From NCBI GenBank assembly GCA_024679065.1, contig JAGIQG010000011.1, positions 42,532,001 through 42,596,000 on the forward strand: a stretch of 64,000 bases of DNA, read 5' to 3'. Positions 3,901 through 64,000 of this stretch are shown here, piece after piece; position 1 is the stretch's first letter; each line of letters starts with the position of its first letter. The notes below the pieces were generated by a model. It saw nothing but the letters and a program-made list of their open reading frames with translations. It ran no database searches and was not told the DNA's origin. Source of the stretch: Sphyrna mokarran (Eukaryota). The position numbers and the translations under genes were made by a program.

Positions 3901-4137
3901 TGTGTTTGAAAGTCAGTATCTGTGTTGGAAGTCAGTGCAGGTTTAATGCCTTTTAACCTCTTATGTGCCGGACAGCTATTTTTATGCCAGATATCCATCT
4001 TTATGGCTTTCTTCCACCTTCAGCATATTTGTGAAGCCACTACAAACCTTGCTGAAGTTTTCTGGAGCAGGTCCTCAACATGGTCAAGCAATGCTTCTAA
4101 TCCTTAACTGAATGACAGTCCTGCTTGTACATCTTGG

Positions 4138-4485
4138 TGTAGAGATGCCAGCGTTGGACTGGGGTAGTAAGAAGTCAGTAAGAATTTAGCAACACCAATT
4201 TTAAATACAATCGATTTATTTGATAGTAAATCTGCGAGCTTTCGACACTCTTGTGCCTCCGTCAGGCAAATGCAGTGTTCTGGTCTGTAATCGCACACAT
4301 ATCAACACTGACAGTCACAGACTGCTGATTAGAATGCAAATCCTTACATCTAACCTGCTATTCAAGTGTTAAAGTGGCTAACAATGTGTGTGAAGGAAAT
4401 CCTGAGCATTGGTTAGACAATTGTGTATTTTCTCCAGACAGCACAGTAAGTGAGGTTTTTTGCTAACCCAGGCAAGTTACGGTGG
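4138..4485 (-). repeat. 3' pseudo-LTR of the PLE
   Basis: Near-identical direct repeat of 7166-7497 and inverted repeat of 8411-8727. Confidence 0.9.
4230..4271 (-). ncRNA. minimal type I hammerhead ribozyme (one core change, CUGACGG)
   Basis: AUUUGC-CUGACGG-A-GGCAC-AAGA-GUGUC-GAAA-GC-UC-GCAGAU. Confidence 0.7.
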
Positions 4486-4910
4486 TTACAGATAGTGTGT
4501 CATGAAGCCAGGATCCCTATTAAGACCATCCTCATGTGTGCGGAACTTGGCTATCAGTCTCTGCTCAGTGACTGCGCTGTCGTGTGTCACGAAGGCCCCC
4601 TTGAAGAACATTTACCCGCAGGTCAGAGGCCGAATGCCCATGACTGCTGAAGTGTTCGCCCACAGGAAGGGAACTGTTTTGCCTGGTGATTGTTGAGCGA
4701 TGCTCATTCATCGCTGTCGTAGTGTCTGCATGGTCTCCCCAATGTACCATGCTTCGGGACATCCTTTCTTGCAACGTATTAGGTAGACAACGTTGGCCGA
4801 GGTGCAAGAGTATGTACCGTGTACCTGGTGAATGGTATCCTCACGTTTGATGATGTCGTCCATGTCTATGATCTGGCATGTCTTGCAGAGGTTGCTGTGG
4901 CAGGGTGTGT
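4486..4910 (-). pseudogene. Cys-rich linker and GIY-YIG endonuclease of the PLE, frameshifted
   Basis: PCHSNLCKTC linker, NVVYLIRCKKGCPEAWYIGET, ...GLNRDLGFMTHYL-stop (TAA at 4488-4486). Small indels near 4908, 4710 and 4572 relative to the other copies. Confidence 0.88.
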
Positions 4911-7163
4911 GGTATTGTGGTCACTGTTTTCCTGAAGGTTGGGTAGTTTGCTGCGAACAATGATCTGTTTGAGGTTGTGCGGTTGTCTGAAAACAAGAAG
5001 TGGGGGGGTGGGGATGGCCCTAGCGAGATGTTCATCGTCATCGATGACATGTTGAAGACTCCGGAGAAGATGTCGTAGCTTCTCCGCTCTGGGGAAGTAC
5101 TGGACAACAAAGGGTACTCTGTCCACCGTGTCCCGTGTTCGTCTTCTGAGGAGGTCAGTGCGGTTTATCGCTGTGGCACGTCGGAACTGTCGATTGATGA
5201 GTCGAGAGCCATATCCTGTTCTCACGAGGGCATTCTTCAGCGTCTGGAGGTGTCTGTCACGATCCTCCTTATCTGAGCAAATTCCGTGTATACGGAGGGC
5301 TTGTCCATAGGGAATGGCTTCTTTAACGTGTCTATGGTGGAAGCTGGAGAAGTGGAGCATTGTGAGGTTGTCTGTCGGTTTGCGGTACAGTGAGGTGCTG
5401 AGGTGACCGTCCTTGATGGAGATGCGTATATCCAAGAATGCAACTGATTCTGGAGAATAGTCCGTGGTGAGTCTCATGGTGGGATGGAACTTGTTGATAT
5501 CATCATACAGTTGTTTCAATGATTGTTCACCATGAGTCCAAAGGAAAAAGATGTCATCAATGTATCTAGTATAGAACTTTGATTGAAGATCTCGTGTGGT
5601 GAAGAAGTCTTGTTCGAACCTGTGCATGAAGATGTTGGCATACTGAGGTGCGAATTTGGTTCCCATGTCTGTTCCATGTGTCTGGATGAAAAGCTGATTG
5701 TTGAAGGTGAAGACATTGTGGTCCAAGATAAAGCGGATGAGTTGTAAAATTGCATCCGGAAACTGACAGTTGTTGGCATTGAGTACTGAGGCAGTTGCAG
5801 CAATACCATCGTCGTGGGGGATGTTGGTGTAGAGCGCCGAGACATCCATTGTGACAAGGAGTGTCCCTGGTTCAACTGCTCCGTGTGTGCTGAGTTTCTG
5901 TAGGAAGTCCGTAGTGTCAAGACAAAAGCTGGGGGTTCTTTCTACAATGGGTTTCAGGATGCCCTCGATATAGCTGAAGAGGTTCTCACACAGGGTCCCA
6001 CTGCCCGATACGATGGGACGGCCGGGTATGTTTGCTTTGTGTATCTTTGGGAGGCAGTAGAGATCTCCAATGTGGGGAGTACGTGGAATGAGAGCCCAGA
6101 GGGTGTTCTGAAGGTCCGGATCAAAGGTTTTGATCAGAGTGTTGAGTTGACAAGTGTGTTCTTTGGTCGGATCTGCTGGTAACTGTCTGTAGTGTCTCAC
6201 ATTGTTTAGTTGTCGGTACACTTCTTCACAGTAGTCCGTTTTGTTCAGTATGAAGGTGGCGCCTCCTTTGTCTGCTGGTTTGATGACAATGTTGCGGTTG
6301 GTCTTGAGAGCACGGATGGCCTTGCTTTGTGCTTGGGTGATGTTCGGGACTGTCCTGTAAGTGCGGTTGATGAATCTGGTGTTCGTGCACCTCCTGATGG
6401 CTTGGGCATACATGTCCAGTGGGGGGCAGCGGCCTTCCGGAGGAGTCCAATTGGATTCATTCCTCTTCAGTTGCTGCACTGCGGATCCCTCTGTCGGCTG
6501 TTCTGGTTCATTAGCTGTCTCATTGAGTCCACTATTGGCCTCTTGGGGTTTGTGGAAGATCTCTCGCAGCCTCATTCGCCTGATGAATTCCTCTGTGTCC
6601 GCTGCAAGACTGATGGGGTCCATTTTGGTGGTGGGACAGAAATTGAGCCCTCGGCTGAGAACTTTGATTTCCTCTGATTGAAGTGTGTAGTCCGACAAGT
6701 TAACAATGGATCTCCCTGCGGTAGTGTTGTTTTCTACTGTGGTGCCAAGAGAGGCTTGGTTGTTGCTGGTGGCGATGCTGAGTTTTTCAAGTTTCCTGTT
6801 CTTAATGTGCATGTAAATGGTGTAGTTTCTTTGTCTCATCTGCTTGGCAAAGTTTTGCAGCTGATCTGCGTCCTGAGCGCAAGTTGAGAATATGTATTCC
6901 ATTTTACTTTCCAGGGTGCAGCATTTGCTATAGAGCTGGTGTATGAGGTGATTGAGGAGTGTGAGAGAGGTGCGACGGCAAAGCCTCTCAGCATAGTCCG
7001 TGTTATAGGTTGACCTGAGTGGGTTCATGATCTGTAGTCCCTTTGGTATCCTGTCTGCTTTCTTGCATCTCTGTAGAAACTTGATGTCTGTGTCAATATG
7101 TGCAATCCTCTTGGAGATCCTCTCCACTTGGATGCAGCAGAATGCGGTGTCGATAGTAGTCAT
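4866..7163 (-). CDS. PLE polyprotein: N-terminal domain + reverse transcriptase (765 aa, ends shortly after a frameshift)
   Basis: Motifs IKPADKGG, LYCLPKIHK..PGRPIVS, LVTMDVSALYTNI, QTHGTDMGTKFAP, YTRYIDDIF, FLDI, LYRKPTD are typical PLE RT and thumb motifs. Confidence 0.93.
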   Translation of the reverse strand: MTTIDTAFCCIQVERISKRIAHIDTDIKFLQRCKKADRIPKGLQIMNPLRSTYNTDYAERLCRRTSLTLLNHLIHQLYSKCCTLESKMEYIFSTCAQDADQLQNFAKQMRQRNYTIYMHIKNRKLEKLSIATSNNQASLGTTVENNTTAGRSIVNLSDYTLQSEEIKVLSRGLNFCPTTKMDPISLAADTEEFIRRMRLREIFHKPQEANSGLNETANEPEQPTEGSAVQQLKRNESNWTPPEGRCPPLDMYAQAIRRCTNTRFINRTYRTVPNITQAQSKAIRALKTNRNIVIKPADKGGATFILNKTDYCEEVYRQLNNVRHYRQLPADPTKEHTCQLNTLIKTFDPDLQNTLWALIPRTPHIGDLYCLPKIHKANIPGRPIVSGSGTLCENLFSYIEGILKPIVERTPSFCLDTTDFLQKLSTHGAVEPGTLLVTMDVSALYTNIPHDDGIAATASVLNANNCQFPDAILQLIRFILDHNVFTFNNQLFIQTHGTDMGTKFAPQYANIFMHRFEQDFFTTRDLQSKFYTRYIDDIFFLWTHGEQSLKQLYDDINKFHPTMRLTTDYSPESVAFLDIRISIKDGHLSTSLYRKPTDNLTMLHFSSFHHRHVKEAIPYGQALRIHGICSDKEDRDRHLQTLKNALVRTGYGSRLINRQFRRATAINRTDLLRRRTRDTVDRVPFVVQYFPRAEKLRHLLRSLQHVIDDDEHLARAIPTPPLLVFRQPHNLKQIIVRSKLPNLQENSDHNTTHPATATSARHARS

Positions 7164-7497
7164 GATGTAGAGATGCCGGCGTTGGACTGGGGTAGTAAGA
7201 ACTCAGTAAGAATTTAGCAACACCAATTTTAAATCCAACCGATTTATTTGACAGTAAATCTGCGAGCTTTTGACACTCTTGTGCCTTTGTCAGGCAAATG
7301 CAGTGTTCTGGTCTGCAATCGCACACATATCAACACAGACAGTCACAGATTGCAGATTAGAATGCGAATCCTTACATCTAACCTGCTATTCAAGTGTTAA
7401 AGTGGCTAACAAATGTGTGTGAAGGGAATCCTGAGCATTGGTTACAGAATTGTGTACTTTCTCCAGACAGCACAGTAAGTGAGGTTTTTTGCTAACC
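7164..7497 (-). repeat. 5' pseudo-LTR of the PLE (5'-truncated), abutting the ORF ATG
   Basis: Direct repeat of 4138-4470. Reads ...CATCTCTACATC-ATG on the minus strand. Confidence 0.9.
7258..7299 (-). ncRNA. minimal type I hammerhead, decayed (CUGACAA, AAAA)
   Basis: AUUUGC-CUGACAA-A-GGCAC-AAGA-GUGUC-AAAA-GC-UC-GCAGAU. Two CpG-type transitions in the core. Confidence 0.65.
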
Positions 7498-8727
7498 TGA
7501 CAGACAACCGCAAACCGATAGACAACCTCACAATGCTCCACTTCTCCAGCTTCCACCATAGACACGTTAAAGAAGCCATTCCCTATGGACAAGCCCTCCG
7601 TATACACAGAATTTGCTCAGATAAGGAGGATCGTGACAGACACCTCCAGACGCTGAAGGATGCCCTCGTGAGAACAGGATATGGCGCTTGACTCATCGAT
7701 CGACAGTTCCGACGTGCCACAGCGATAAACCGCACTGACCTCCTCAAAAGACGAACACGGGACACGGTGGACAGAGTACCCTTTGTTGTCCAGTACTTCC
7801 CCAGAGCGGAGAAGCTATGACATCTTCTCTGGAGTCTTCAACATATCATTGATGACGATGAACATCTCGCTAGGGCCATCCCCACCCCTCCACTTCTTGC
7901 TTTCAGACAACCGCACAACCTCAAACAGATCATTGTTCGCAGCAAACTACCCAACCTTCAGGAGAACAGTGACCACAATACCACAGCAACCCTGCCACAG
8001 CAACCTCTGCAAGACATGCCAGATCATAGACATGGACGACATCATCAAATGTGAGGATACCATTCACCAGGTACACGGTACGTACTCTTGCAACTCGGCC
8101 AACGTTGTCTACCTAATACATTGCAAGAAAGGATGTCCCGAAGCATGGTACATTGGGGAGACCATGCAGACACTATGACAGCGGATGAATGACATCGCTC
8201 AACAATCACCAGGCAAAACAGTTCCCTTCCTGTGGGCGAACACTTCAGCAGTCATGGGCATTCGGCCTCCGACCTGCAGGTAAATGTTCTTCAAGGGGGC
8301 CTTCGTGACACACGACAGCGCAGAGTCGCTGAGCAGAGACTGATAGCCAAGTTCCGCACACATGAGGATGGTCTTAATAGGGATCTTGGCTTCATGACAC
8401 ACTATCTGTAACCCCCGTAACTTGCCTGGGTTAGCAAAACACCTCACTTACTGTGCTGTCTGGAGAAAATACACAATTCTCTAACCAATGCTCAGGATTC
8501 CCTTCACACACATTGTTAGCCACTTTAACACTTGAATAGCAGGTTAGATGTAAGGATTTGCATTCTAATCAGCAGTCTGTGACTGTCAGTGTTGATATGT
8601 GTGCGATTACAGACCAGAACACTGCATTTGCCTGACGAAGGCACAAGAGTGTCGAAAGCTCGCAGATTTACTATCAAATAAATCGGTTGGATTTAAAATT
8701 GGTGTTGCTAAATTCTTACTGAGTTCT
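7498..8727 (+). repeat. inverted 5'-truncated PLE arm (RT C-terminus, EN, pLTR)
   Basis: Reverse complement of ~4170-5385. ORF fragments RKPIDNLTMLHFSSFHH and VVYLIHCKKGCPEAWYIGET, with internal stops. Confidence 0.92.
8626..8667 (+). ncRNA. minimal type I hammerhead ribozyme, intact core
   Basis: Stem I AUUUGC/GCAGAU, core CUGACGA, stem II GGCAC/GUGUC, GAAA, vestigial stem III with palindromic AGCU, predicted cleavage after C8661. Confidence 0.85.
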
Positions 8728-9129
8728 TTGTACATCTTGGACCAGGGTAGTGCCAGAGCAGTGTCAGTTTGATGGCAGGGTATTGTCAGCGGTTGCCAGC
8801 TTGACACCAGCAAGTGCACTTGGATAAAGATTATTTCCTGGTTTGCTAGCTGTGCTTTGGGGCAACATCTTAAGGTGGTACCCAGATGTAGTATTTGACT
8901 TGATGACAGTGCAGGCAATTCAGAGCTACCAACCACTGACATACTATGGAACCTGTGACTCCAAGTTTTCTTTTCTAAGTCCCGGATTATGTGGTGGAAA
9001 AAGCTGCCACTGCCTTCAATGGCCTTAATGACGTTTTCCCAGCTGACATTGGCCTTTGTCAACATCAGAGAAAATCTCAACCCTATAATGTTCTTCTTTT
9101 CTATAATAACCCTTAAGATGGCAGCATAT

Positions 9130-21796: not shown

Positions 21797-23137
21797 GTCA
21801 AGCATGGACATAATGAACTATACCCAACATCTTACAATATGATATATAGGAGGCACAGTTAGTAAGTTTGCAGATGACACAAAGATTGATGGCATAGTGG
21901 ACAGTGAGAAAGTTATCTCCAATTGTGAAGGAATCTTGATCAATTGGGCCAGTGGGCTGACGATGGCAGATGGAGTTTAATTTAGACAAATGCGAGGTGA
22001 TGCATTTTGGTAAACTGAATCAGGGCAGGACTTACTTAGTTAATGGTAGGGCATTGGGGAATTATAGAACAAAGAGATCTAGGGGTACGTATTCATAGCT
22101 CTTTGAAGGTGGAGTCACAGATGGACAGAGTGGTGAAGAAAGCATTTGGCATGCTCGGTCAGAACATTGAACACAGAGTTGGAATGTCTTGTTAAAATTA
22201 TACAAGACATTAGTACGGTCACACTTGGAATACTGTATGCGATTCTGGTCACCTTATTATAGAAAGGATATTCTTAAATTGGAAAGAGTGCAGAAAAGAT
22301 TTATTAGGATTTACCAGGATTTGATGGATTGAGTTATAAGGAGAAGTGGCGCAATAGCACAGTGGTTACCACTACTTCTTCACAACTCCAAGGATGTGAG
22401 TTTCATTCCCAGTTTGATTCCCAGCTTGTCTGTGTGCAGTCTGCACATTCTCTATACGTCTGTATGGGTTTCCTCCCACAGGCCAAAGATGTGTGGCCTG
22501 GGTGGCTATGCTAAAATTGTCCCTTAGTATCCTGAGATGCATAGATTAGAGGGATTAGCAGGTAAATGTATAGGCTATGCTAAAATTGTCCCTTAGTATC
22601 CTGAGATGCATAGATTAGAGGGATTAGCAGGTAAATGTATAGGGATGTGGGGGTAGGGCTTGACTGCAATTGTGGTCAGTGCAGACTTGATGGGCTCAAT
22701 AGCTTCCTTCTGTACTCTAGGGATTCTATGAATGGCTGGATAGACTGGGACTTTTTTCTATGGAGCATAGGAAGCTGAGGAATAATTTTATTGAGGTATA
22801 TAAAATAATGAAGAGCACAGAGCAGCTAGATAGTCAATATCTTTTCCCAAAGATAGAGGACTCTAAAACTAGAGGGCATAGGTTTAAGCTGTGAGGAGAG
22901 AGATACAAAAGTATCCAGAGGGGCAATTTTTTTCCCCACACAGAGGGTGGTGAGTATCTGAAACAAGCTGCCAGAGGTAGTAGTAGAGGTGGGTACAATT
23001 TTGTCTTTTAAAAAGCATTTAGATAGTTCATGGGTACAGTGGGTTTAGAGGGATATGGGCCAAATGCAGGCAATTGAAATGAGAGGCAAGTTGGGTCGTA
23101 GGGGCTGTTTCTATGCTGTAAACCTCTATGATTCTAT
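21797..23137 (+). mobile_element. CR1 LINE 3' fragment interrupted by a SINE
   Basis: SKFADDTK, QMEFNLDKCEVMHFG, LEYCMRFWSPYYRKDI motifs and a CTCTATGATTCTATG tail. Confidence 0.85.
22347..22731 (+). mobile_element. HE1-like SINE nested in CR1, with an internal 69-bp tandem duplication
   Basis: tRNA head. 22504-22572 equals 22573-22641. Confidence 0.82.
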
Positions 23138-30142: not shown

Positions 30143-31745
30143 TGATTTGATTTATTATTATCACATGTATTAACATACAGTGAAAAGTATTATTTCTTGT
30201 GTGTTATACAGATAAAGTATACCATTCATAGAAGCAAGCAGAATGTAGTGTTGCAGTCATAGCTAGGATGTAGAGAAAGATCAACTTAACGTAAGGTAAG
30301 TCCATTCAGAAATCTGATTGCAGCAGGGAAGAAGCTGTTCTTGAATTGGTTGATACGCAACCTCAGACTTTTGCATCTTTTTCCTGAAGGAAGGAGGATG
30401 AAGAGAGAATGGCCGGAGTGCTTTGCCGAGGCAGTGGGATGTGTGGACAGATTCAGTGGATGGGAGACATTCACGATCTGTTGTAATTCCTTGTGGTCTT
30501 GGGCAGAGCAGGAGCCACACCAAGCTGTGATACAACCAGAAATAATACTCTCTATGGTTCATCTGTAAACATTGGTGAGAGTTGTAGCTGATGTGCCAAA
30601 TTTCCTTAGTCTTCTGAGAACGTAGAGGTGTTGGTGGGCTTTCTTAACAATAATGTCAGCATAGGGGGGACCCGGACAAGTTGTTAGTGACCTGGGCACC
30701 TAAAAACTTGAAGCTTTTGATTCTTTCTACTTCATCCTCATTGATGTAGGCAGGGACATGTTCTCCTTTACGCTTCCTGAAGTCAATGACAATCTTCTTT
30801 GTTTTGTTGATATTGAGGAGAGATTATTGTTGCTGCACCAGTTCACCAGATTGTCTGTTTCATTATTGTACTCTGTCTTGTTGTTTGAGATCTGACTACA
30901 ACGGTGGTGTCATCAGCAAACTTGAAAATCAAATTGTGAGAAATTTAGCTGCATAGTTATAGGTGTATAAGGAGTTTAGTAGAAGGCTGAGAACACAGCC
31001 TTGTGTGACACCAGTGTTGAAGATGATCGTGGAGGAGGTGTTGTTGCCTATCCTTATTGATTGTGGTGTGTGAGTTGGTAAGTTCAGGATCCAGTTGCAG
31101 AAGGAGGTGTCAAGATCCAAGCCACGGAGTTTGGAGATGAATTTCGGGGGAATAATAGTGTTGAAGGCTGAGTTGTAGTCAACAAATAGGTGTCTGACAT
31201 AGGTCTCCTTGTTATCTAGGTGTTCCAGAGTTGAGTGCAGGACCGGGGAAGTGGCATCAGCTGTGGACCTGTTGCAGCAGTAGGCAAACTGGATCCAGGT
31301 AGTTTGGGAGGCTGGAATTGATTTCTGTCGTGACTAACCTTTTGAAGCACTTCATAATGATGGATGTCAGAGTCATTGGCCAATAGTCATTAAGGCATGC
31401 TGTTTGTTTTTGCTTAAGTACTGGGATGATGGTCATCTTTTTGAAGCAGTTGGGAGCTCAGATTATTGTAAAGAGAGATTGAAGATGTCTGTGAATATCT
31501 CCGCCAGCTGATCTGTGCAGGAACTGAGTGCATGCCCAGGTACCCCATTTGGGCCAGTTACTTCCCATTGGTTGACCTTCAAGAAAGGTGCTCTGATATC
31601 TGCAATGGTGATCCCAGGTTCATTCAGGGCTTCAGAGTGGAGGGCATGCTCTCAATGACCTCTTGTTCAAAATGGATGTAGAATGCATTGAGTTCATCAG
31701 GGAGGGAATGCTTTGGAGCCAGTGATTTTTATATGCCTTCATCTT
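30143..31745 (-). mobile_element. Rex1/Babar LINE fragment
   Basis: FCNWILN...[47 protein letters not shown], and a (TTTGA)n tail. Confidence 0.85.
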
Positions 31746-39960: not shown

Positions 39961-41829
39961 TTGATGTTCAGCCCTTGTTTTCCATCAGACTCAAACTTGG
40001 TACAATGAGAAGGCTGATCATGATAGATTTATTATTGCAATATTAATTCCATGCTAGGAAAACTGGCTTTTAAAGTATGCAAATTTCAGAAATTGAGTCC
40101 TCTTCTTCCCAGGTTTCATTTTGCTGCTCTTGTGTGCATTTTTTTTTCTAACCTAATTTTTTGAAAGTATGCTGAGCACTCAGCTTTCTTTCAGAGCTTC
40201 CTCAATCCCACCAGCTGCTTTGAAACTGGGAATAACGGAAATAGAATAATGAGTCTTTGTTTTGTCCAGGTGTGAGGGACTGACTGCCTTAATTTTCTTG
40301 TTACTGATATATAGATTTTTAGAATCATTTCAAATTGTGCTTTCCTCTATTTGCTTGTATTTAAAAAGTAGTTATTCAAGTGATTAATGCATAATGTACA
40401 ATCAGATATTTGCTCTTTAGATTTATAAATGAGAAATCAGTAAATTGAATTGTACACAAAGAAAATACTGGTTTATAAAAGAGTGATAATATGTGAAGGA
40501 GAAAGGTAGGTTAATTTTCTGATGAGAGACTTCACATTTGGAAAAGACGATCTTCCAGCATTTTTTATCTTTATTTCCAATATCCGACATAAGTTCTGAT
40601 TCGAGCCTCTTTTAATTCAAAATAAAATATTACTAACTCTTTAAATTTTCCTGAAATATTATTCCTGTGTTTCTTCAGGGAAACTAATTTACTGATTTTG
40701 CAACTGTAATGTTGTTTATGTCCATGAGAATGGAGCCTGTTTCTATCCTTCTGACTGTATTTATGTTGCACGTGATTAATAATATCTATTGCAGCTTGGT
40801 CTGAGAAGTGCAGACACAGCTTCTCTATTGGTTTAGCAAATTTTTCCAATGAGTTATGAGCCATGTAAACCCTGCAAGGTGCCAGGCTCAATCTTCAGTG
40901 TAAAATGCATTAGCCAATCTCTCTGTTGCATTTATTTTACATCTTGAGTTCCTCAAATGTCCCAAAAGGTTGAGTATTTGTGAGAGTTCCATTTGAGACC
41001 AGAAGAGTGGCAAGGCTAAGGACCTTTGTGAAAAGATAAAGTTACTAAAGACATGAGTTGTTGCTAAACTGGTGAGAGACATGAATGACTATATTTGAAG
41101 AATTAAAGCAACAGCTTTCATTGCAAAATGAAACTAAAGAAATTCAATACAATTTCACTTTATTATCCATACAGAAATCCATATCTGATACATTTCTTGT
41201 ATATTGATAAAATTACATTAAAGAAGATAAAATAACCCATCAGAGATCTAACTTTAATTAAAATATATATTAAAAACTATCCAATGCATTAAAATAATCA
41301 GTGAGGCCACTCGGAGTGCATTTCCCTGTCCAAGCATCAACTCTTGTTAAAAGTTCTGAGAGATGAGCACAAATGAATTTAGGAACTGATTTCTTCTGCA
41401 TTTGAACGAATGCAGTATTTTTCCTGAATGCGTCTAACTGTAATACTGAAACATAGAGTGATTCTCATTGTTTATACCACTCTTTACTTTTGTCAAAATT
41501 CTTTGAGAGCCAGTTTCCTAAAGGAAGATCTGCATATCAAACCTGTTTGGTTCAATAATCTCTGTATCCATAAATGGTCTATTTTCTTCAGATAGTACTA
41601 AGTAAGACATCAAAGAAGGATAGCACTCTCGATTATAGCCATATAAAAGAGTTTCCCAATTGCAGGATCTACTGGAAATAATTTTAAATTTATGAAGTAG
41701 TATAATGTTGGTTACCACATCTGTACAATGTTCCAGTTGGTAACTGTTTCAGTATCCACATCGTGAATTTTCACAGGAACAATATCATTTAACAGACTTT
41801 TTCTGGAAGTCTATAATTAGCCTACAAGT

Positions 41830-44260
41830 GAAGCAGTCCTTAACTGCATGCAGCAAGAACTGGACAATATTCAGGCTTGGGCTTTAAGTGGCAAGTAACA
41901 TTGCACCACACAAGTGCCAGGCAATGTCTATTTTCAAGATGATCAATCTAAGCATCTTCCATTTATGTCGCTGAATCCTCCACTGTCAACGTTCTGAGGG
42001 TTACCATTGAGCAAAAAATGAACTGGAATAGTTATAAAAATACAATGGCTACAACTAGAAATTAAGGACTAGAAATTCCATGGTGAGTAACGTCCTGATT
42101 CCCCAAAGTCTACCGTCTACAAGGCCCAAGTCAGAAATATAATGTATGATTTTCCCCTTGTATGGATGAGTGCAGACTTAATGCTCAATGCATTCTATAC
42201 CTGTTTTGAGTAAGAGGTCAGTGAGAGCATGCCCTCCACCCTGGAAGCCTTGGATGAACTTACATCTGAGGTAACTCTTTAAGATGTCAGACATGCTTTC
42301 TTAAAGTCAACCGCAAAAAGTGACTGGCCAAGATGTGGAACCCAAATGAGCACTCAGATTCTGTGTGAGTCAGCTGGTGGTATTCGCAGACATCTTCAAC
42401 TTCTCTTTTCAACGATCTGAAGAAAACAACATTTATCCCGGTACCGAAGAAAGGCCAAACAGTGTGCCTTAATGACTCATCCGGTCGCTCTGACATCCAT
42501 CATTATGAAGTGTCTCAAAAAATTAGTCATGGCATGAATCAATTCCAGCCTCCTGGACTGCCTGGATCCACTACAGTTTGCTACAGCTGCAACCGGTCTA
42601 CAGCAAATGGCATTTACCTGGCCCTGCATTCAATCCTGGAATACCTAGAAAACAGAGGCACACTGTGTCCATACGGATACAATAGTCAGAGTCCTATTTA
42701 TGAACTTCAGCTCAGCCTTCAACACCAATTATTCTGAGGAAACTCATCTCCAAATTCCATGGTCTGAGCCTTGGCTCCTCCTCCTACAACTGGACACTGA
42801 ACTGCATAACTCACATAACTTACAATCAGTAAGGATAGGCAACAATACCTCCTCCATGATCATCATCAACACTGATGCCCCATAAGGCTATGTCCTCAGC
42901 CCCCTACTATACTTGTACATCTATTACTGTGTGGGCAAATTCCCCTTCAACTCGATTTTCAAGTTTGCTGACGACACCACCATAGCGGGTTGGATTCAAA
43001 CAATGACAAGACAGAGTGCAGGAATGAGTTAGAGAATCTGATGTACTGGTGCAGCAACTATAATCCTCAATGTCAACAGAACAATGGCAATTGTCATCGA
43101 CTTTGGAAAAGGTAAAGGGGAACATGCCCCTGTCTACATCAATGGGGATGAAGTGAAAAGGGTCAAGAGCTTCAAGTTTTTAGTATCCAGATCACCAACA
43201 ACCTGTCCTGGTCCCTCCATGCTGACACTAGTTAAGAAAGCCTATCAACACTTCTATTTTCTCAGAAGATTAAGGAAACTTGGCATGTCAGTTACGATTC
43301 ACACCCAATGTTTACAGATGCACCATAGAAAGCATTCTTTCTGACTTTATCAGAGCTTGGTATATCTTCTGCTCTACCCAAGACAACAAAAAACTATAGA
43401 AGGTCATAAATGTAGCTTGGTCTATCGTGCAAACAGCCTCTTATTCACTGATTCTATCTACGCTTGCTGCTGCCTCAACAGAGCAGCCAGCATAATTAAG
43501 GACCCTAAGCACTCCAGACATTCTCTATTCTACCTTCTTCCATCGGGAAAAAAGATACAAAAGTCTGAGGTTACCTGCCAATCAACTCAAGAACAACTTC
43601 TTCCCTGTTGCTGTAGGACTTTTGAATGGATTTGCTTTGCGTTAAGTTGACCTTTTTTTACACCCTAGCTGTGACTGTAACACTACATTTCTGCACTCTC
43701 TCGGTTCCTTCTCCATGAATAGCATGCTCTGTATAGCACACAAAAAACAATACTTTTCACTGTATGCTAATACATGTGACAATAAATCAAATCAACAACA
43801 TTGAAAATGCTTGACACTATCCATGACGAAGTAGCTTCGGGTGATACATCATCCACAAATATTCACTCCCTCCCAGTGGTATATACCATCTACAACATGC
43901 ACTTCAGTAACTCACCAAAAGTCCTTCAACAGTACCTTCCAAATCCATAACTTCTACTATCTTGAATAGAAGTTTTCAAGATCTATGAATCTTGAAATTC
44001 ATAGATTTTCAATCTATGAATAGCATCATCTGTAAGTTACCCTCCAAACCACACATCCACCTCAATTGGAACTATATCATCTTTCCTCCACTATCACTGG
44101 ATTAAAATTCTATATCTCTCTTCTTAACAGCACTGAATGTTCCTACAACACACAGACTTAATGGTTCAAGAAGGCAGCTCACTACAACCTTCTTGGGGCC
44201 AATGAGGGATGGACAGTAAATGCTGACTTAGCCAGCAACATCCATATCTCGTGAATGAAT
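41830..44260 (+). mobile_element. CR1/L2-superclade LINE split by a Rex1 insertion
   Basis: The LINE sequence stops at ~42180 and resumes at ~43796. Confidence 0.7.
42190..43795 (+). mobile_element. Rex1/Babar LINE fragment
   Basis: [42 protein letters not shown], and an (AATCA)n tail. Same family as 30143-31745. Confidence 0.85.
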
Positions 44261-49905: not shown

Positions 49906-49929
49906 TGAACCACTACCACCATGCCACAA

Positions 49930-50690
49930 TGTGGAGATGCTGGTGTTGGTTTGGGGTAAACACAATAAACATCAGGTTAAAGTCCAACAAATTTTATTTG
50001 ATAGTAAACCCATAAGCTTTTGGAGTTTGCCCTTTGTCAGGTGAGTGAAGAGTTCTGGTCTCAAATGGAGCATTTAAAGGCACACACAGTTTACAGAATA
50101 CTGATTAGAATGTGAACCTTTACAGCTAATCAATTCTTAAAGATGCGGACAATGTGAGTGGAGATAGTATTAAGCATAGGTTAAAGAAATGTGTATTGTC
50201 CCCAGACAGGACAGTAAGTGAGATGTTGCAAGCCCAGGCAAGTCATGGGGGTTACAAGTAGTGTGACATAAACCCAAAATCCTGGTTGAGGCTGTCCTCA
50301 TGTGTGCGCAACTTGGCTATTAGTTTCTGCTCAGTGATTCTGTGCTATTGTATGTCATGAAGGCTGCCTTGGAGAACATTTACCCAAAGATTAGAGCCAA
50401 ATGCTGGTAACCACTGAAATGCTCACCAATAGGAAAGGAACAGTCTTGCCTGGTGAGTCTAGCCAAGGGAGACTATACATATCTCTTTAACCTATGTCCA
50501 CATCTTTTAAGAATTGGTTAAGACAATTGATTAAAAGAACTGTAAAGACTCACATTCTAATCAGTATTCTGTAAACTGTGTGTGCCTTTATATGGTCTGT
50601 TTGAGACCAGAACTCTCCACTCACCTGACAAAGGGGCAAACCCTGAAAGCTTGAAGGTTTATTATCAAAAACTTCTTTGATTTTAACCAT
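49930..50690. mobile_element. inverted pair of PLE 3' ends (EN C-terminus + pLTRs), HHR remnants in both arms
   Basis: 49930-50457 (-) and ~50460-50690 (+) are reverse complements. CTGACAAAGGG(G)C...(G/A)AAAGCTT in each arm. Confidence 0.8.
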
Positions 50691-51704
50691 CATGCCATTC
50701 CAGATCACCACCACCTCAAGCACAAATAAAGATTGGCAATAAATGCTGGCTTAGCATGCAATACCTGCATCTCATAGATTAAATTTCAAAAATTGTTTCT
50801 GATCACTGTCACTATGTATCACCAACTCTGGACTCGTGTCACGTCCTTCTAATGTGCTAATAGCTCAATTGACAGAGTGTGGGCTCATCAGATGTCACGC
50901 AGCCATTTCTTCCGCTTCCTGATTGAGGGGTGAGTGACTGGCATTGGGAGCTGTGTGAGAGACAAAAGGAGTTAATGAGATCCAGCTTGTTGCATTGTGG
51001 AAGCACACTCTGATGCAAGCCGTTGCCCTTTAACCATAACTGCACTGCTCTTATTGTGCCAACTCCACCTCACACTCCCTCTCATGCCAATGTCCCATTG
51101 TGCTCATTGAACTAACTGCATTGCCTCTAACAGTACAAAATTCCTCCACAACTACCATTAGTACCTTTTTACAGATGATTCACCATTTCATGCCAAGTAG
51201 GCACCCTGGCTATCTGCATTTGTACTGACATGAGAAATGGAAAAAAAATGCGTATAAGACATCAGTTTTGAATGGTCTCTCACACATTTGTGTGCTCACA
51301 TTCATGTTCTCTATTTCATCGATGACTAATTTGAGGGGAGGGGATGACAAAATATATCTAGAAAAATGCAGGGTAGCCTTGTGTTTGTTCCTGTGATGGA
51401 TGGCATGCAATGCTGCCAACCACTATCCTATTGTCTTACATCCTGAGCCACTCTCTTATAGAATGAGGTTGTGCAGCTGTGAGGGTCCAGGTCAAAGAGT
51501 ATCCTGAGAGATGGTCAGAACACAGGTAAGCAGAAGGTAAAGACCATGAGGTGAGAAAGAGTAGAATGGTCCCTGCAAGAAGGATGTTTACCTTGTCCAG
51601 GGTGTCCAGAATAAAGGATGGCAGTTTCACATTAAGAGTAAGACCACCTAGGACTCAGCCTTATTGGAGCCTGTGCAATTGGAAGGTGTGGATTGATTCC
51701 TACT

Positions 51705-53732
51705 CATAGTAAGAAGTCTCACAACACCAGGTTGAAGTCCAACAGATTTATTTGGTAGCAAAAGCCACTAGCTTTCAGAGCGCTGCCCCTTCGTCAGTAA
51801 GTGTTCACAAACAGGGCACATAAAGACACAAACTCAATTTACAAAATAATGGTTGGAATGCGAGTCCTTGCAGGTAATCAAGTCTTAAAGTTTTAGACAA
51901 TGTGAGTAGAGAGAGCATTAAGTACAGGTTAAAGCAATAGAATCATAAAAATCAGTGAAACTCTACAGAGCAGAAAGAGGCCATCTGGCCCATCAAGTCT
52001 GCACCGAACACAATCCCACCCAGGCCCTATCCCCGTATTCCAACACATTTACCCACTAATTCCTCTAATTTCCGCATCTCAGGACACAAAGGGACAATTT
52101 TAGCATGGCCAGTCAACCTAATCCACACATCTCTGGACTGTGGGAGGAAACTGGAGCACCCAGAGGAGAATGTGCAGACTTCAGACAGTGACCCAAATCG
52201 GGAATTGAACCCAGGTCTGTGGAGTGGTGAAGCAGCAGTGCTAATCACTGTGTGTTTGCCTCCAGACCGGACAGTTAGTGAGATTTTACAAGCCCAGGCA
52301 AGTCATGGGGGTTACACATAGTGTGACAGGAACCCAAGATTCCGGTTGAAGCCGTCCTCGTGTGCGGAACCTGGCTATCAGTGTCTGCTCTGTGACTGCA
52401 TTATCGTGTGTCGTAAAGGCCACCTCGGATAATGCTTACCCGAAGATCAGAGGCCGAATGCCCGTGACTGCTGAAATGTTCCCCGACAGGAAGAGAACAG
52501 TCTTGCCTGGTCATTATTGACTGGTGTTCATTCATCCATTGTCACAGTGCCTGCATGGTCTCCCCAATATACCAAGCCTTGAGACATCCTTTCCTGCAGC
52601 GTATCAGGTAGACAACGTTGGCCGAATTGCAAGAATATGTACCGTGTACCTGGTGATAGTGTTCTCACGTGAGATCATGGCATTCATGTCGATGATCCAG
52701 CACGTCTCTCGGTAGTTTGTTGCATACAGTTACTTCCCTGGAATGGAGAAGCTATAACATCTCCGGAGTCTTCAGTGTGTCATTGATGAAGATGAACATC
52801 TTGCCAAGGCCATCTCCATATCCCCACTTCTTGCCTTCAAACAACTGCATAACCTCAAACAGACCACTGTCTGCAGCAAGCTACCCAGCCTTCAGGAGAA
52901 TAGTGTCCACGGCATCACAACCCTGCCACAGCAATCTCTGTAAAATGTGTGGGATCATCGACAAGGATGCCATCATCGTTGAGAACACCATCCACCAGGA
53001 TGCCATCATCGTTGAGAACACCGTCCACCATCACGTGAGAACACCGTCCACCAGGTACACGGTACATACTTTTACACCTCGGCCAATGTTGTCTACCTGA
53101 TATGCTGCGGGAAAGGATGTCCTGAGGCATAGTACACTGGGGAGACCATGCAGATGCTCCGACAACGGATGAATGAACACTTTCGACAATCACCAGGCAA
53201 GAATGTTCTCTTCCTGTTGGGGAACACTTCAGCGGTCATGGGCATTTGGCCTCTGATCTTCGGATAAGCTTCATGACACACAGCCTTCACAACACCCAGC
53301 AGTGCAGAGTCACTGAGCAGAGAGTGATAGACAAGTTCCGCACACATGAAGACAGTCTCAACCAGGATCTTCGGTTCATGTCACACCTACCTGTAACCTT
53401 CACGACTTGCCTGGGCTTGCAAAATCTCACTAACTGTTCTGTCTGGAGACAACACGCATATCTTTAAGTTGTGCTAAACACTCTCGCCACTCACATTGTC
53501 TGTACCTTTGAGATTTGATTACCTGTAAAGACTTGCATTCCAACCGTTATTTTGTAAATTAAGTTTGTTTTTGTATGCCCTGTTTGTGAACAGAGCTCCT
53601 ACTTATCCGATGAAGGCGCAGCAGTCCGAAAGCTGTGGTGTTTGCTACCAAATAAACCTGTTGGGCTTTAACCTTGTGTTGTGAGACTTCATACTGTGTT
53701 TACTCCAGTCCAACACTGACATCTCCACATCC
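51705..53732. mobile_element. inverted pair of PLE 3' fragments (GIY-YIG + pLTR) with a nested SINE
   Basis: Minus arm 51705-~52710, plus arm ~52715-53732. QPCHSNLCKMC and EQRVIDKFRTHEDSLNQDLRFMSH. HHR motifs at ~51765-51800 (-) and ~53603-53638 (+). Confidence 0.85.
51938..52251 (-). mobile_element. HE1-like SINE inserted in the PLE pLTR
   Basis: Reverse-complement SINE. The PLE sequence resumes at ~52252. Confidence 0.8.
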
Positions 53733-54439
53733 TGATTGCTACTGAACAATCTATAGTGCAGGTGAGGAACTCTCCATGAGTGAACTTCTGGTAATCTTTA
53801 AACCTTTTCAGCATAATAAAGATGTCAAGGACTATGGGTTTGCTATGGGGTATCAGGAATACAATCTTCCTTGATCATTTTGCATGCAAGGGAAGTCTCA
53901 AAGCCAGATGCCATTCTCACTGCCCTTCTCTGGTTCTGCTTGAAAGAGTTCTCTGTAAGGTCTTTCCTCTGTTGGGAGCAGGTGTGAGGGTGACAGGAGT
54001 GAAACCCCGCCAAGGTAAATTTTGATATTGCTTCCAAATTTTTGTGCATAAGGACATTGTGAGGGTGTGGGGAAAAAATGTTATTTTTATTAAGAAGAGC
54101 CCAAGATTGTGGGTGAACAGAGTGCTTTGCATGTTCTAATGTGAACATTTAGTTCTGGGATTCTATATAACAGCATAGTTTGGCACATGGAAAGGATCAG
54201 ACCACCAACAAAACAGACATTAAGTCAATTGCAATTTAATTCAGCTGCCATAAATCAAATTGCATATTAGAGCAAAACATAATGTCTGTTACCACTAAGG
54301 AGCTTGGCTCTGCTAACCAACAGAGGATGGAAAATCAAATAATAAAGGAAATGTCTTGGCAGCATATTCTGCCTGGAATCTGTTAGCTGTCTGATTATGA
54401 TGGATCTCTCTGCTTGGTTGCAACCCTGGAATGAGCTGT

Positions 54440-63350: not shown

Positions 63351-64000
63351 GTAGTAAGAACTCAGTAAGAATTTAGCAACACCAATTTATAATCCAACCG
63401 ATTTATTTGATAGTAAAAAAGCGAGCTTTTGACTCCTGTGTCTTCTTCAGGCAAATGTAGTGTTCTGGTCTGCAATAGCACACATCAGCACAGACAGTCA
63501 GAGATTGCTGATTAGAATGCGAATCCTTACATCTAACCTGCTATTCAAGTGTTAAAGTGGCTAACAATGTGTGTGAAGGGAATCCTGAGCATTGGTTAGA
63601 GAATTGTGTATTTTCTCCAGACAGCACAGTAAGTGAGGTTTTTTGCTAACCCAGGCAAGTTACGGGGGTTACAGATAGTGTGTCATGAAGCCAAGATCCC
63701 TGTTAAGACCGTCCTCATGTGTGCGGAGCTTGGCTATCAGTCTCTGTTCAGCGACTCTGCGCTGTCGTGTATCACGAAAGCCCCCTTGAAGAACATTTAC
63801 CCGCAGGTCGGAGGCCGAATGCCCATGACTGCTGAAGTGTTCGCCCACAGGAAGGGAACTGTTTTGCCTGGTGATTGTTGAGCGATGCTCATTCATCCGC
63901 TGTCGTAGTGTCTGCATGGTCTCCCCAATATACCATGCTTCGGGACATCCTTTCTTGCAACGTATTAGGTAGACAACGTTGGCCGAGTTGCAAGAGTATG
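63351..64000 (-). mobile_element. PLE of the same family as 4138-8727 (pLTR + GIY-YIG), running off the window end
   Basis: High identity to 4165-4812. Open EN frame MQTLRQRMNEHRS...FMTHYL. Decayed HHR at 63421-63456. Confidence 0.92.

Follow-up and report, generated by a model that had tools for sequence, protein, structure and literature searches.

Positions 8626–8667 of the window, the 64,000-nucleotide stretch of the Sphyrna mokarran genome analyzed here, hold an undecayed minimal type I hammerhead, which is an ordinary copy of an already known kind. In the reading that we consider probable on the whole, this hammerhead lies in a Penelope-like element (PLE), likely of the Neptune clade, the copy itself is likely an inert passenger, and the source elements of its family cut as tandem dimers, probably slowly. 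The motif class, the dimer model and the location in fish PLEs were already described in 2014 (PMC4209133).

The motif and its host element

The preliminary description had given the sequence and coordinates of the motif, and both proved exact, with all core positions present (Table 1). Stem I consists of six pairs and stem II of five, each including one G-U pair, and the proposed vestigial stem III with its palindromic AGCU is in place, as the dimer model requires. The same description had drawn on the published background of minimal type I hammerheads (min-HHRs) in PLE pseudo-LTRs (pLTRs), thought to dimerize through the palindrome, and this agrees with the published class, reported from pLTRs of metazoan PLEs including the fish elements Xena, Poseidon and Neptune (Cervera and De la Pena 2014, PMC4209133). 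The site at 8626–8667 shares with that class the type I core order, the extra base between positions 9 and 10.1, a typical trait of PLE hammerheads, the G10.1-C11.1 pair, a minimal helix III with a palindromic 15.2–16.2 region, a 2-nt insert and the location in a pLTR (PMC4209133).

A generic hammerhead descriptor run over both strands of the window returned 8626–8667 as its sole match; among 200 dinucleotide shuffles an equally strict match never occurred, and any loose match occurred in six. A search of the Rfam hammerhead families, which the preliminary description had proposed as a check, gave no match in the whole window, nor in 8560–8740 with E values up to 10; the published minimal PLE motif was itself recovered with a separate descriptor (PMC4209133). 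Our covariance model gave the 8626 copy 60 bits, a score that is not independent, the same copy being among the model's input sequences. A chance resemblance, in whose favor one could cite the Rfam result and a second, stemless CTGANGA..GAAA site at 40519, was rejected on the shuffles, on the genome count of the core pattern against its control and on the covariation of the stems across copies (both below); the site also lies in a PLE pLTR, as the published motif does, and we regard the probability of coincidence as negligible.

One PLE insertion spans 4138–8728 and is flanked by a 13-bp target-site duplication (TSD). It carries the features of endonuclease-bearing (EN+) PLEs, namely a single ORF joining a reverse transcriptase (RT) to a C-terminal GIY-YIG endonuclease (here a frameshifted remnant), pLTRs, an inverted truncated copy, a one-sided tail and the TSD; the arrangement of pLTRs and inverted arm is standard for such elements (PMC8557442). 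The placement of the motif in a PLE pLTR, as first described, is thereby upheld by the repeat structure, the RVT_1 match, the linker and the GIY-YIG remnant. From stop to stop, the RT frame runs from 7202 to 4866 (minus strand) and breaks at the RT-endonuclease linker; the linker and GIY-YIG remnant lie out of the RT frame, and their frame is broken again downstream. A PDB sequence search with the PLE ORF gave no match. The inverted arm ends 67 nt past the predicted cut and the main body 98 nt past its own. About nine nucleotides between the two (7498–7506) aligned to neither.

A C-x2-5-C-x-x-C (CX2-5CxxC) linker between RT and endonuclease marks Neptune and Nematis elements (PMC8557442), and the C-x4-C-x2-C linker found here is of this form. 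Judged by this one motif, the element likely belongs to the Neptune clade. An affiliation with Poseidon, considered at first, was given up on account of this Cys motif. With the EN+ PLE insertions and the Neptune clade described by Craig et al. (2021, PMC8557442), the element further shares the partial tandem layout, an inverted copy beside the upstream pLTR, the one-sided tail and two Cys residues lying between GIY and the YIG-like motif; no structural difference from the elements covered there was noted, and the endonuclease frame is broken in the 4138–8728 copy.

Table 1. Features of the hammerhead at 8626–8667, its host element and related copies (window positions).
Feature	Positions	Strand	Details
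Minimal type I hammerhead, core complete	8626–8667	+	Predicted cut after C8661
Stem I, 5′ strand ATTTGC	8626–8631	+	Partner GCAGAT 8662–8667
Core C3–A9, CUGACGA, and extra A8639	8632–8639	+	DNA CTGACGA 8632–8638
Stem II, GGCAC-AAGA-GTGTC	8640–8653	+	5 bp, AAGA loop; closing pair G10.1-C11.1 (G8640-C8653)
G12-A13-A14, palindrome AGCU, C17 (GAAA-GC-TC)	8654–8661	+	AGCU (8657–8660) replaces stem III
TSD, left copy	4125–4137	.	13 bp
TSD, right copy	8728–8740	.	13 bp; first base common with arm end
PLE main body	4138–7497	-	5′ pLTR, ORF, 3′ pLTR and tail
5′ pLTR	7166–7497	-	Direct repeat of 4138–4468 at 94%
RT ORF from first ATG (7163)	4866–7163	-	RVT_1, E 1e-10
Linker C-x4-C-x2-C and start of GIY-YIG endonuclease	4711–4920	-	GIY-YIG, E 0.053, below curated cut-off
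Tail of main body	4138–4168	-	About 31 nt; missing from inverted arm
Inverted 5′-truncated arm	7507–8728	+	3′ part of ORF and pLTR; 96.9% identity to 4169–5386 over 1223 bp
Hammerhead in 3′ pLTR	4230–4271	-	A9G
Hammerhead in 5′ pLTR	7258–7299	-	G8A and G12A, both CpG to CpA
Hammerhead of separate insertion, sister subfamily	63417–63456	-	G12A; 3-bp stem II, 2-bp stem I

The core substitutions that had been noted in the copies at 4230, 7258 and 63421 were confirmed and are specified in Table 1. A9G in the 4230 copy we take to be core damage; a literature search for its effect returned nothing relevant. For hammerheads, G8 and G12 have been proposed to act as general acid and base (PMC6155905). 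In the 63421 copy, neither the short stem II nor the weak stem I is damage; its subfamily shares the 3-bp stem II and 2-bp stem I, so these odd stems were inherited and only G12A is the copy's own.

Copy number, subfamilies and covariation

In the 2.77-Gb genome, the 8626–8667 motif has 100 exact copies (control, 0), and the 5′ half of the family matches 1,606 times. The core pattern CTGANGAAG-N8-14-YGAAAGCTH occurs 54,682 times against three in the control, about once per 50 kb. This is approximately six times the highest counts noted from PMC4209133 (about 9,000 in Xenopus and 4,000 in coelacanth), in a comparison across differing descriptors. The downstream pLTR box accompanied 67 of 76 sampled cores.

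For a sample with the core left unconstrained, we took the first 100 5′-half matches listed, all on one contig, and recovered 101 copies. The catalytic bases were nearly invariant (C3 in 96, U4 in 100, G5 in all 101, A6 in 100, G8 in 99 and A9 in 100), the extra base was A in 100, and AGCU was kept at the palindrome by every copy, while N7 was split four ways (C37/G39/A20/U5). Position 17 was C, A or U, with G rare in the free samples (in the 76-core sample the search pattern itself imposed H). The whole core was intact in 84 of the 101 copies. Intactness is thus the family norm and, at the 8626 locus, no sign of selection. The preliminary description had held that this arm retains the ancestral motif: it does carry undecayed subfamily sequence, as the 100 exact copies attest, but is in no way special in this.

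Three subfamilies of similar age were distinguished, with flanks 95.6–96.0% identical within each (computed on the 68 full-span rows among 105): one with a 5-bp stem II and a G-C closing pair, to which the 8626 copy belongs, one with a 5-bp stem II and a G-U closing pair, and one with a 3-bp stem II and a 2-bp stem I, represented by the 63421 copy. The word "ancestral" consequently holds within the motif's own subfamily only, at least three subfamilies of similar age with different stems co-existing. In an unrooted tree, the 8626 and 4230 copies group as sisters (97/86), consistent with a single template end having been copied two times and with a later origin of A9G in the 4230 copy. The subfamily with the 2-bp stem I, which makes up 31 of the 101 sampled copies and retains the full core, resembles Drosophila virilis Penelope, whose helix I has 2 bp; its GAAAG-CUCG-CUUUU segment might fold back into a hairpin and thereby mask the core. 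In entire subfamilies the partner of G10.1 is U rather than C (39 of 101 copies; 23 of 49 alignment rows), and part of this pairing may be fixed CpG decay.

Covariation was assessed on 76 cores from the first 60 matched stretches listed, which yielded 48 distinct stem II hairpins; the tallies count rows, which are related and hence not independent events. At stem II pairs 2–4, 122 of 144 cells were paired, compared with 83.1 when arms were swapped (0 of 5000 shuffles as high), and at stem I pairs 1–4, 133 of 176, compared with 123.8 shuffled (53 of 5000 as high) and 53–69 in slid controls. When the window copy was added (49 rows), 80.9% of cells paired, against 69.2% shuffled (0 of 500) and 27–45% slid. 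Both sides had changed at stem II pairs 2 and 3 in 18 and 19 rows, respectively, with one unpaired row each; the swaps seen were G-C/A-U in both stems and, in stem II, also C-G/A-U. The covariation whose absence across family copies had been named as grounds for abandoning the proposal is therefore present, strong for stem II and weaker for stem I. Covarying stems in many families are likewise recorded for the min-HHRs of PMC4209133, most of which occur singly or on opposite strands. Because the stems covary across families and only N7 is free, the hammerhead fold is, as judged by sequence comparison, under selection in the source elements.

Folding, copy ends and the proposed mechanism

AGCU is unable to close a hairpin within one molecule and pairs with a second AGCU. 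PLE hammerheads reportedly cleave as dimers (Lunse et al.). The predicted energy of the double hammerhead is -20.1 kcal/mol, compared with -20.4 kcal/mol for two monomers, and the best dimer fold is a different structure at -28.5 kcal/mol; the energy models used disregard the tertiary core of the hammerhead and co-transcriptional folding. The bare 42-mer is predicted to form both stems. In three contexts of 100 to 300 nt, the pair probability of stems I and II falls to 0.02 or less for the 8626 copy, and a rival hairpin is predicted in which UGCCU pairs with AGGCA, burying C3, U4 and G10.1. Across the 76 cores, both stems exceeded 0.5 in three in context; in minimal context, stem II did so in 39 and stem I in 23.

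The 8626 copy stands alone on the plus strand, and the same-strand pair at 4230 and 7258 is damaged in both members. Intact cores were present on both strands at 18 of 80 loci and two on one strand at one of 80 (stretches of 1.2–5.7 kb, in which 3-kb tandem partners of single matches are missed). A read-through RNA would pair both arms of the insertion in a very stable duplex of 1.2 kb. The 8626 copy is therefore best described as a likely inert passenger, and of the claim that the motif is active, the intact core stands; against the rest speak its lone position on the strand, the predicted rival hairpin and the record of PLE hammerheads, the Schistosoma motif being inactive as a monomer and of low activity as a dimer (PMC4209133), and the PAc hammerhead cleaving only with the element's protein (PMC11167929). 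That the copy itself is active in cells, whether by dimerizing in trans with transcripts from other copies or by cutting read-through host RNA, appears very unlikely to us. Its core bases are all intact, thousands of genomic copies could supply AGCU partners, the double hammerhead nearly equals two monomers in predicted stability, and related sequence occurs in contigs of RNA-labelled or RNA-guessed runs (contigs that show no ends, strand or level). In context, however, the rival hairpin dominates and the best dimer fold is a different one, the antisense arm gives a very stable duplex, the inverted arm lacks an upstream pLTR of its own, and the intact core is what most family members have.

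All 140 aligned copies end 45–114 nt past the cut, with peaks near 60–70 and 100–109 nt; because every one of them extends past it, their templates carried an uncut 3′ hammerhead. The 3′-end peaks and the tail resemble the two initiation sites and the tail of PAc (Poseidon of Anolis carolinensis; Frangieh et al. 2024, PMC11167929), in which the hammerhead likewise lies upstream of two 3′ end points, the two end classes are 30–40 nt apart and insertion proceeds from uncut RNA. Before the common downstream box, A13-A14 was absent from 945 copies and retained in 25,878.

At the 5′ side, fine mapping of 71 of the 945 copies showed no spike at the cut. Mapping against a family library placed 5 of 64 junctions there compared with 9% expected (the library is incomplete, and 7 of 71 rows were set aside as indels), and a family-agnostic mapping gave a best spike share of 0, with an interval of 0–0.16, from 62 junctions (9 of 71 set aside). 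In an 11-nt window round the cut, starts amounted to about 0.56% of copies per nucleotide, similar to the upstream starts of 16 of 76 cores. In those 16, upstream homology begins within about 50–52 nt of C3, and several head-to-head pairs are joined at stem I. Among copies of the GCAGA type, genome-wide, 23 begin at the cut site or at the base preceding it and 13 start two to three bases upstream (p 0.028 or 0.107, depending on the correction); these cut-site starts are about 2.5% of copies, with 3,789 native copies matched for the denominator. Visual inspection classed 8 of the 23 as fold-back or microhomology joins. The weak excess of 23 over 13 would fit some cut RNA being copied, and the data cap any cut footprint at a few percent.

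A bolder version of events, which we consider doubtful, would make these hammerheads protein-gated ribozymes: the naked RNA would misfold, the element's protein would switch the dimer on, the roughly 2% of copies that begin at the cut would be cleavage fossils, and this would be perhaps the most hammerhead-rich genome counted. We hold it to be unlikely that source elements instead preserve the motif for some non-cutting purpose, for example as a signal, bound or folded by the element's protein, beside the start of reverse transcription and the start codon (101 nt downstream). Several observations agree with such a role: 3′ ends never fall at the cut, the 5′ ends show no clear footprint in the junctions mapped, and subfamilies with a 2-bp stem I have spread equally well. 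For PAc, hammerhead mutants leave insertion in vitro, for which the hammerhead is dispensable, unaffected, and RNA-seq ends at the cut are absent from the data covered (PMC11167929), while Naiads thrive without a hammerhead (PMC8557442). The conserved positions are, however, exactly the catalytic ones, with N7 free and position 17 accepting C, A or U, and cleavage of the PAc and Schistosoma motifs has been obtained under certain conditions (PMC11167929, PMC4209133).

We retain cutting by tandem dimers as the probable role in source elements; counting against our overall reading are, among other points, the weaker covariation of stem I, which has just 2–3 bp in common subfamilies, the prediction that the bare 42-mer forms both stems and the weak excess of junctions at the cut. 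In the mechanism we propose, AGCU-to-AGCU pairing would join a pair of hammerheads within a tandem transcript into a double hammerhead. Cleavage after C17 would follow, probably at a slow rate and probably dependent on refolding of the RNA by the element's own protein, and most insertions would be copied from RNA uncut at the hammerhead site. In the 4138–8728 insertion, both arms would have been copied from one template end in a single event, and the arm at 8626 would have escaped later point mutations. This copy would remain without cleavage, having no same-strand partner and being held in a duplex with the antisense arm in read-through RNA.

Relation to known elements and other repeats in the window

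The element differs from PAc in that the PAc ORF starts inside the hammerhead (PMC11167929), whereas here the first ATG lies 101 nt downstream of the cut and the linker carries the Neptune-type Cys motif. Non-LTR retrozymes (bioRxiv 10.64898/2026.07.22.740005) also have PLE-derived type I hammerheads, among others in one Chondrichthyes genome, but are ORF-less tandem repeats of hammerhead units, whereas the element at 4138–8728 carries an ORF and has an inverted arm. Our literature search found nothing on shark Penelope hammerheads or shark Neptune elements; accounts from sharks, or higher counts, may already have been published. By itself, the 8626 copy is of little importance; the family is a test bed for the purpose of PLE hammerheads, a question raised as open in PMC8557442 and PMC11167929, offering tens of thousands of copies, natural covariation, spreading short-stem variants and enough junctions for a genome-wide footprint test.

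The window holds five more hammerhead-like copies, from older PLE families (183–227, 50006–50048, 50617–50660, 51761–51804 and 53599–53642); the one at 51761–51804 has an intact core and a UA cut triplet and is missing one stem I base. Older PLE fragments with 70–80% identity to the 4138–8728 element are clustered in both orientations at 49929–53741. A further inverted repeat pair, 30242–30819 and 43064–43689, is about 80% alike and 12–13 kb apart. A short interspersed repeat occurs in five copies (12448, 15151, 22350, 38666 and 49566), in which ARAGORN found no tRNA and which we take to be a shark tRNA-derived SINE; one copy contains an exact 69-nt tandem duplication (22504–22641).
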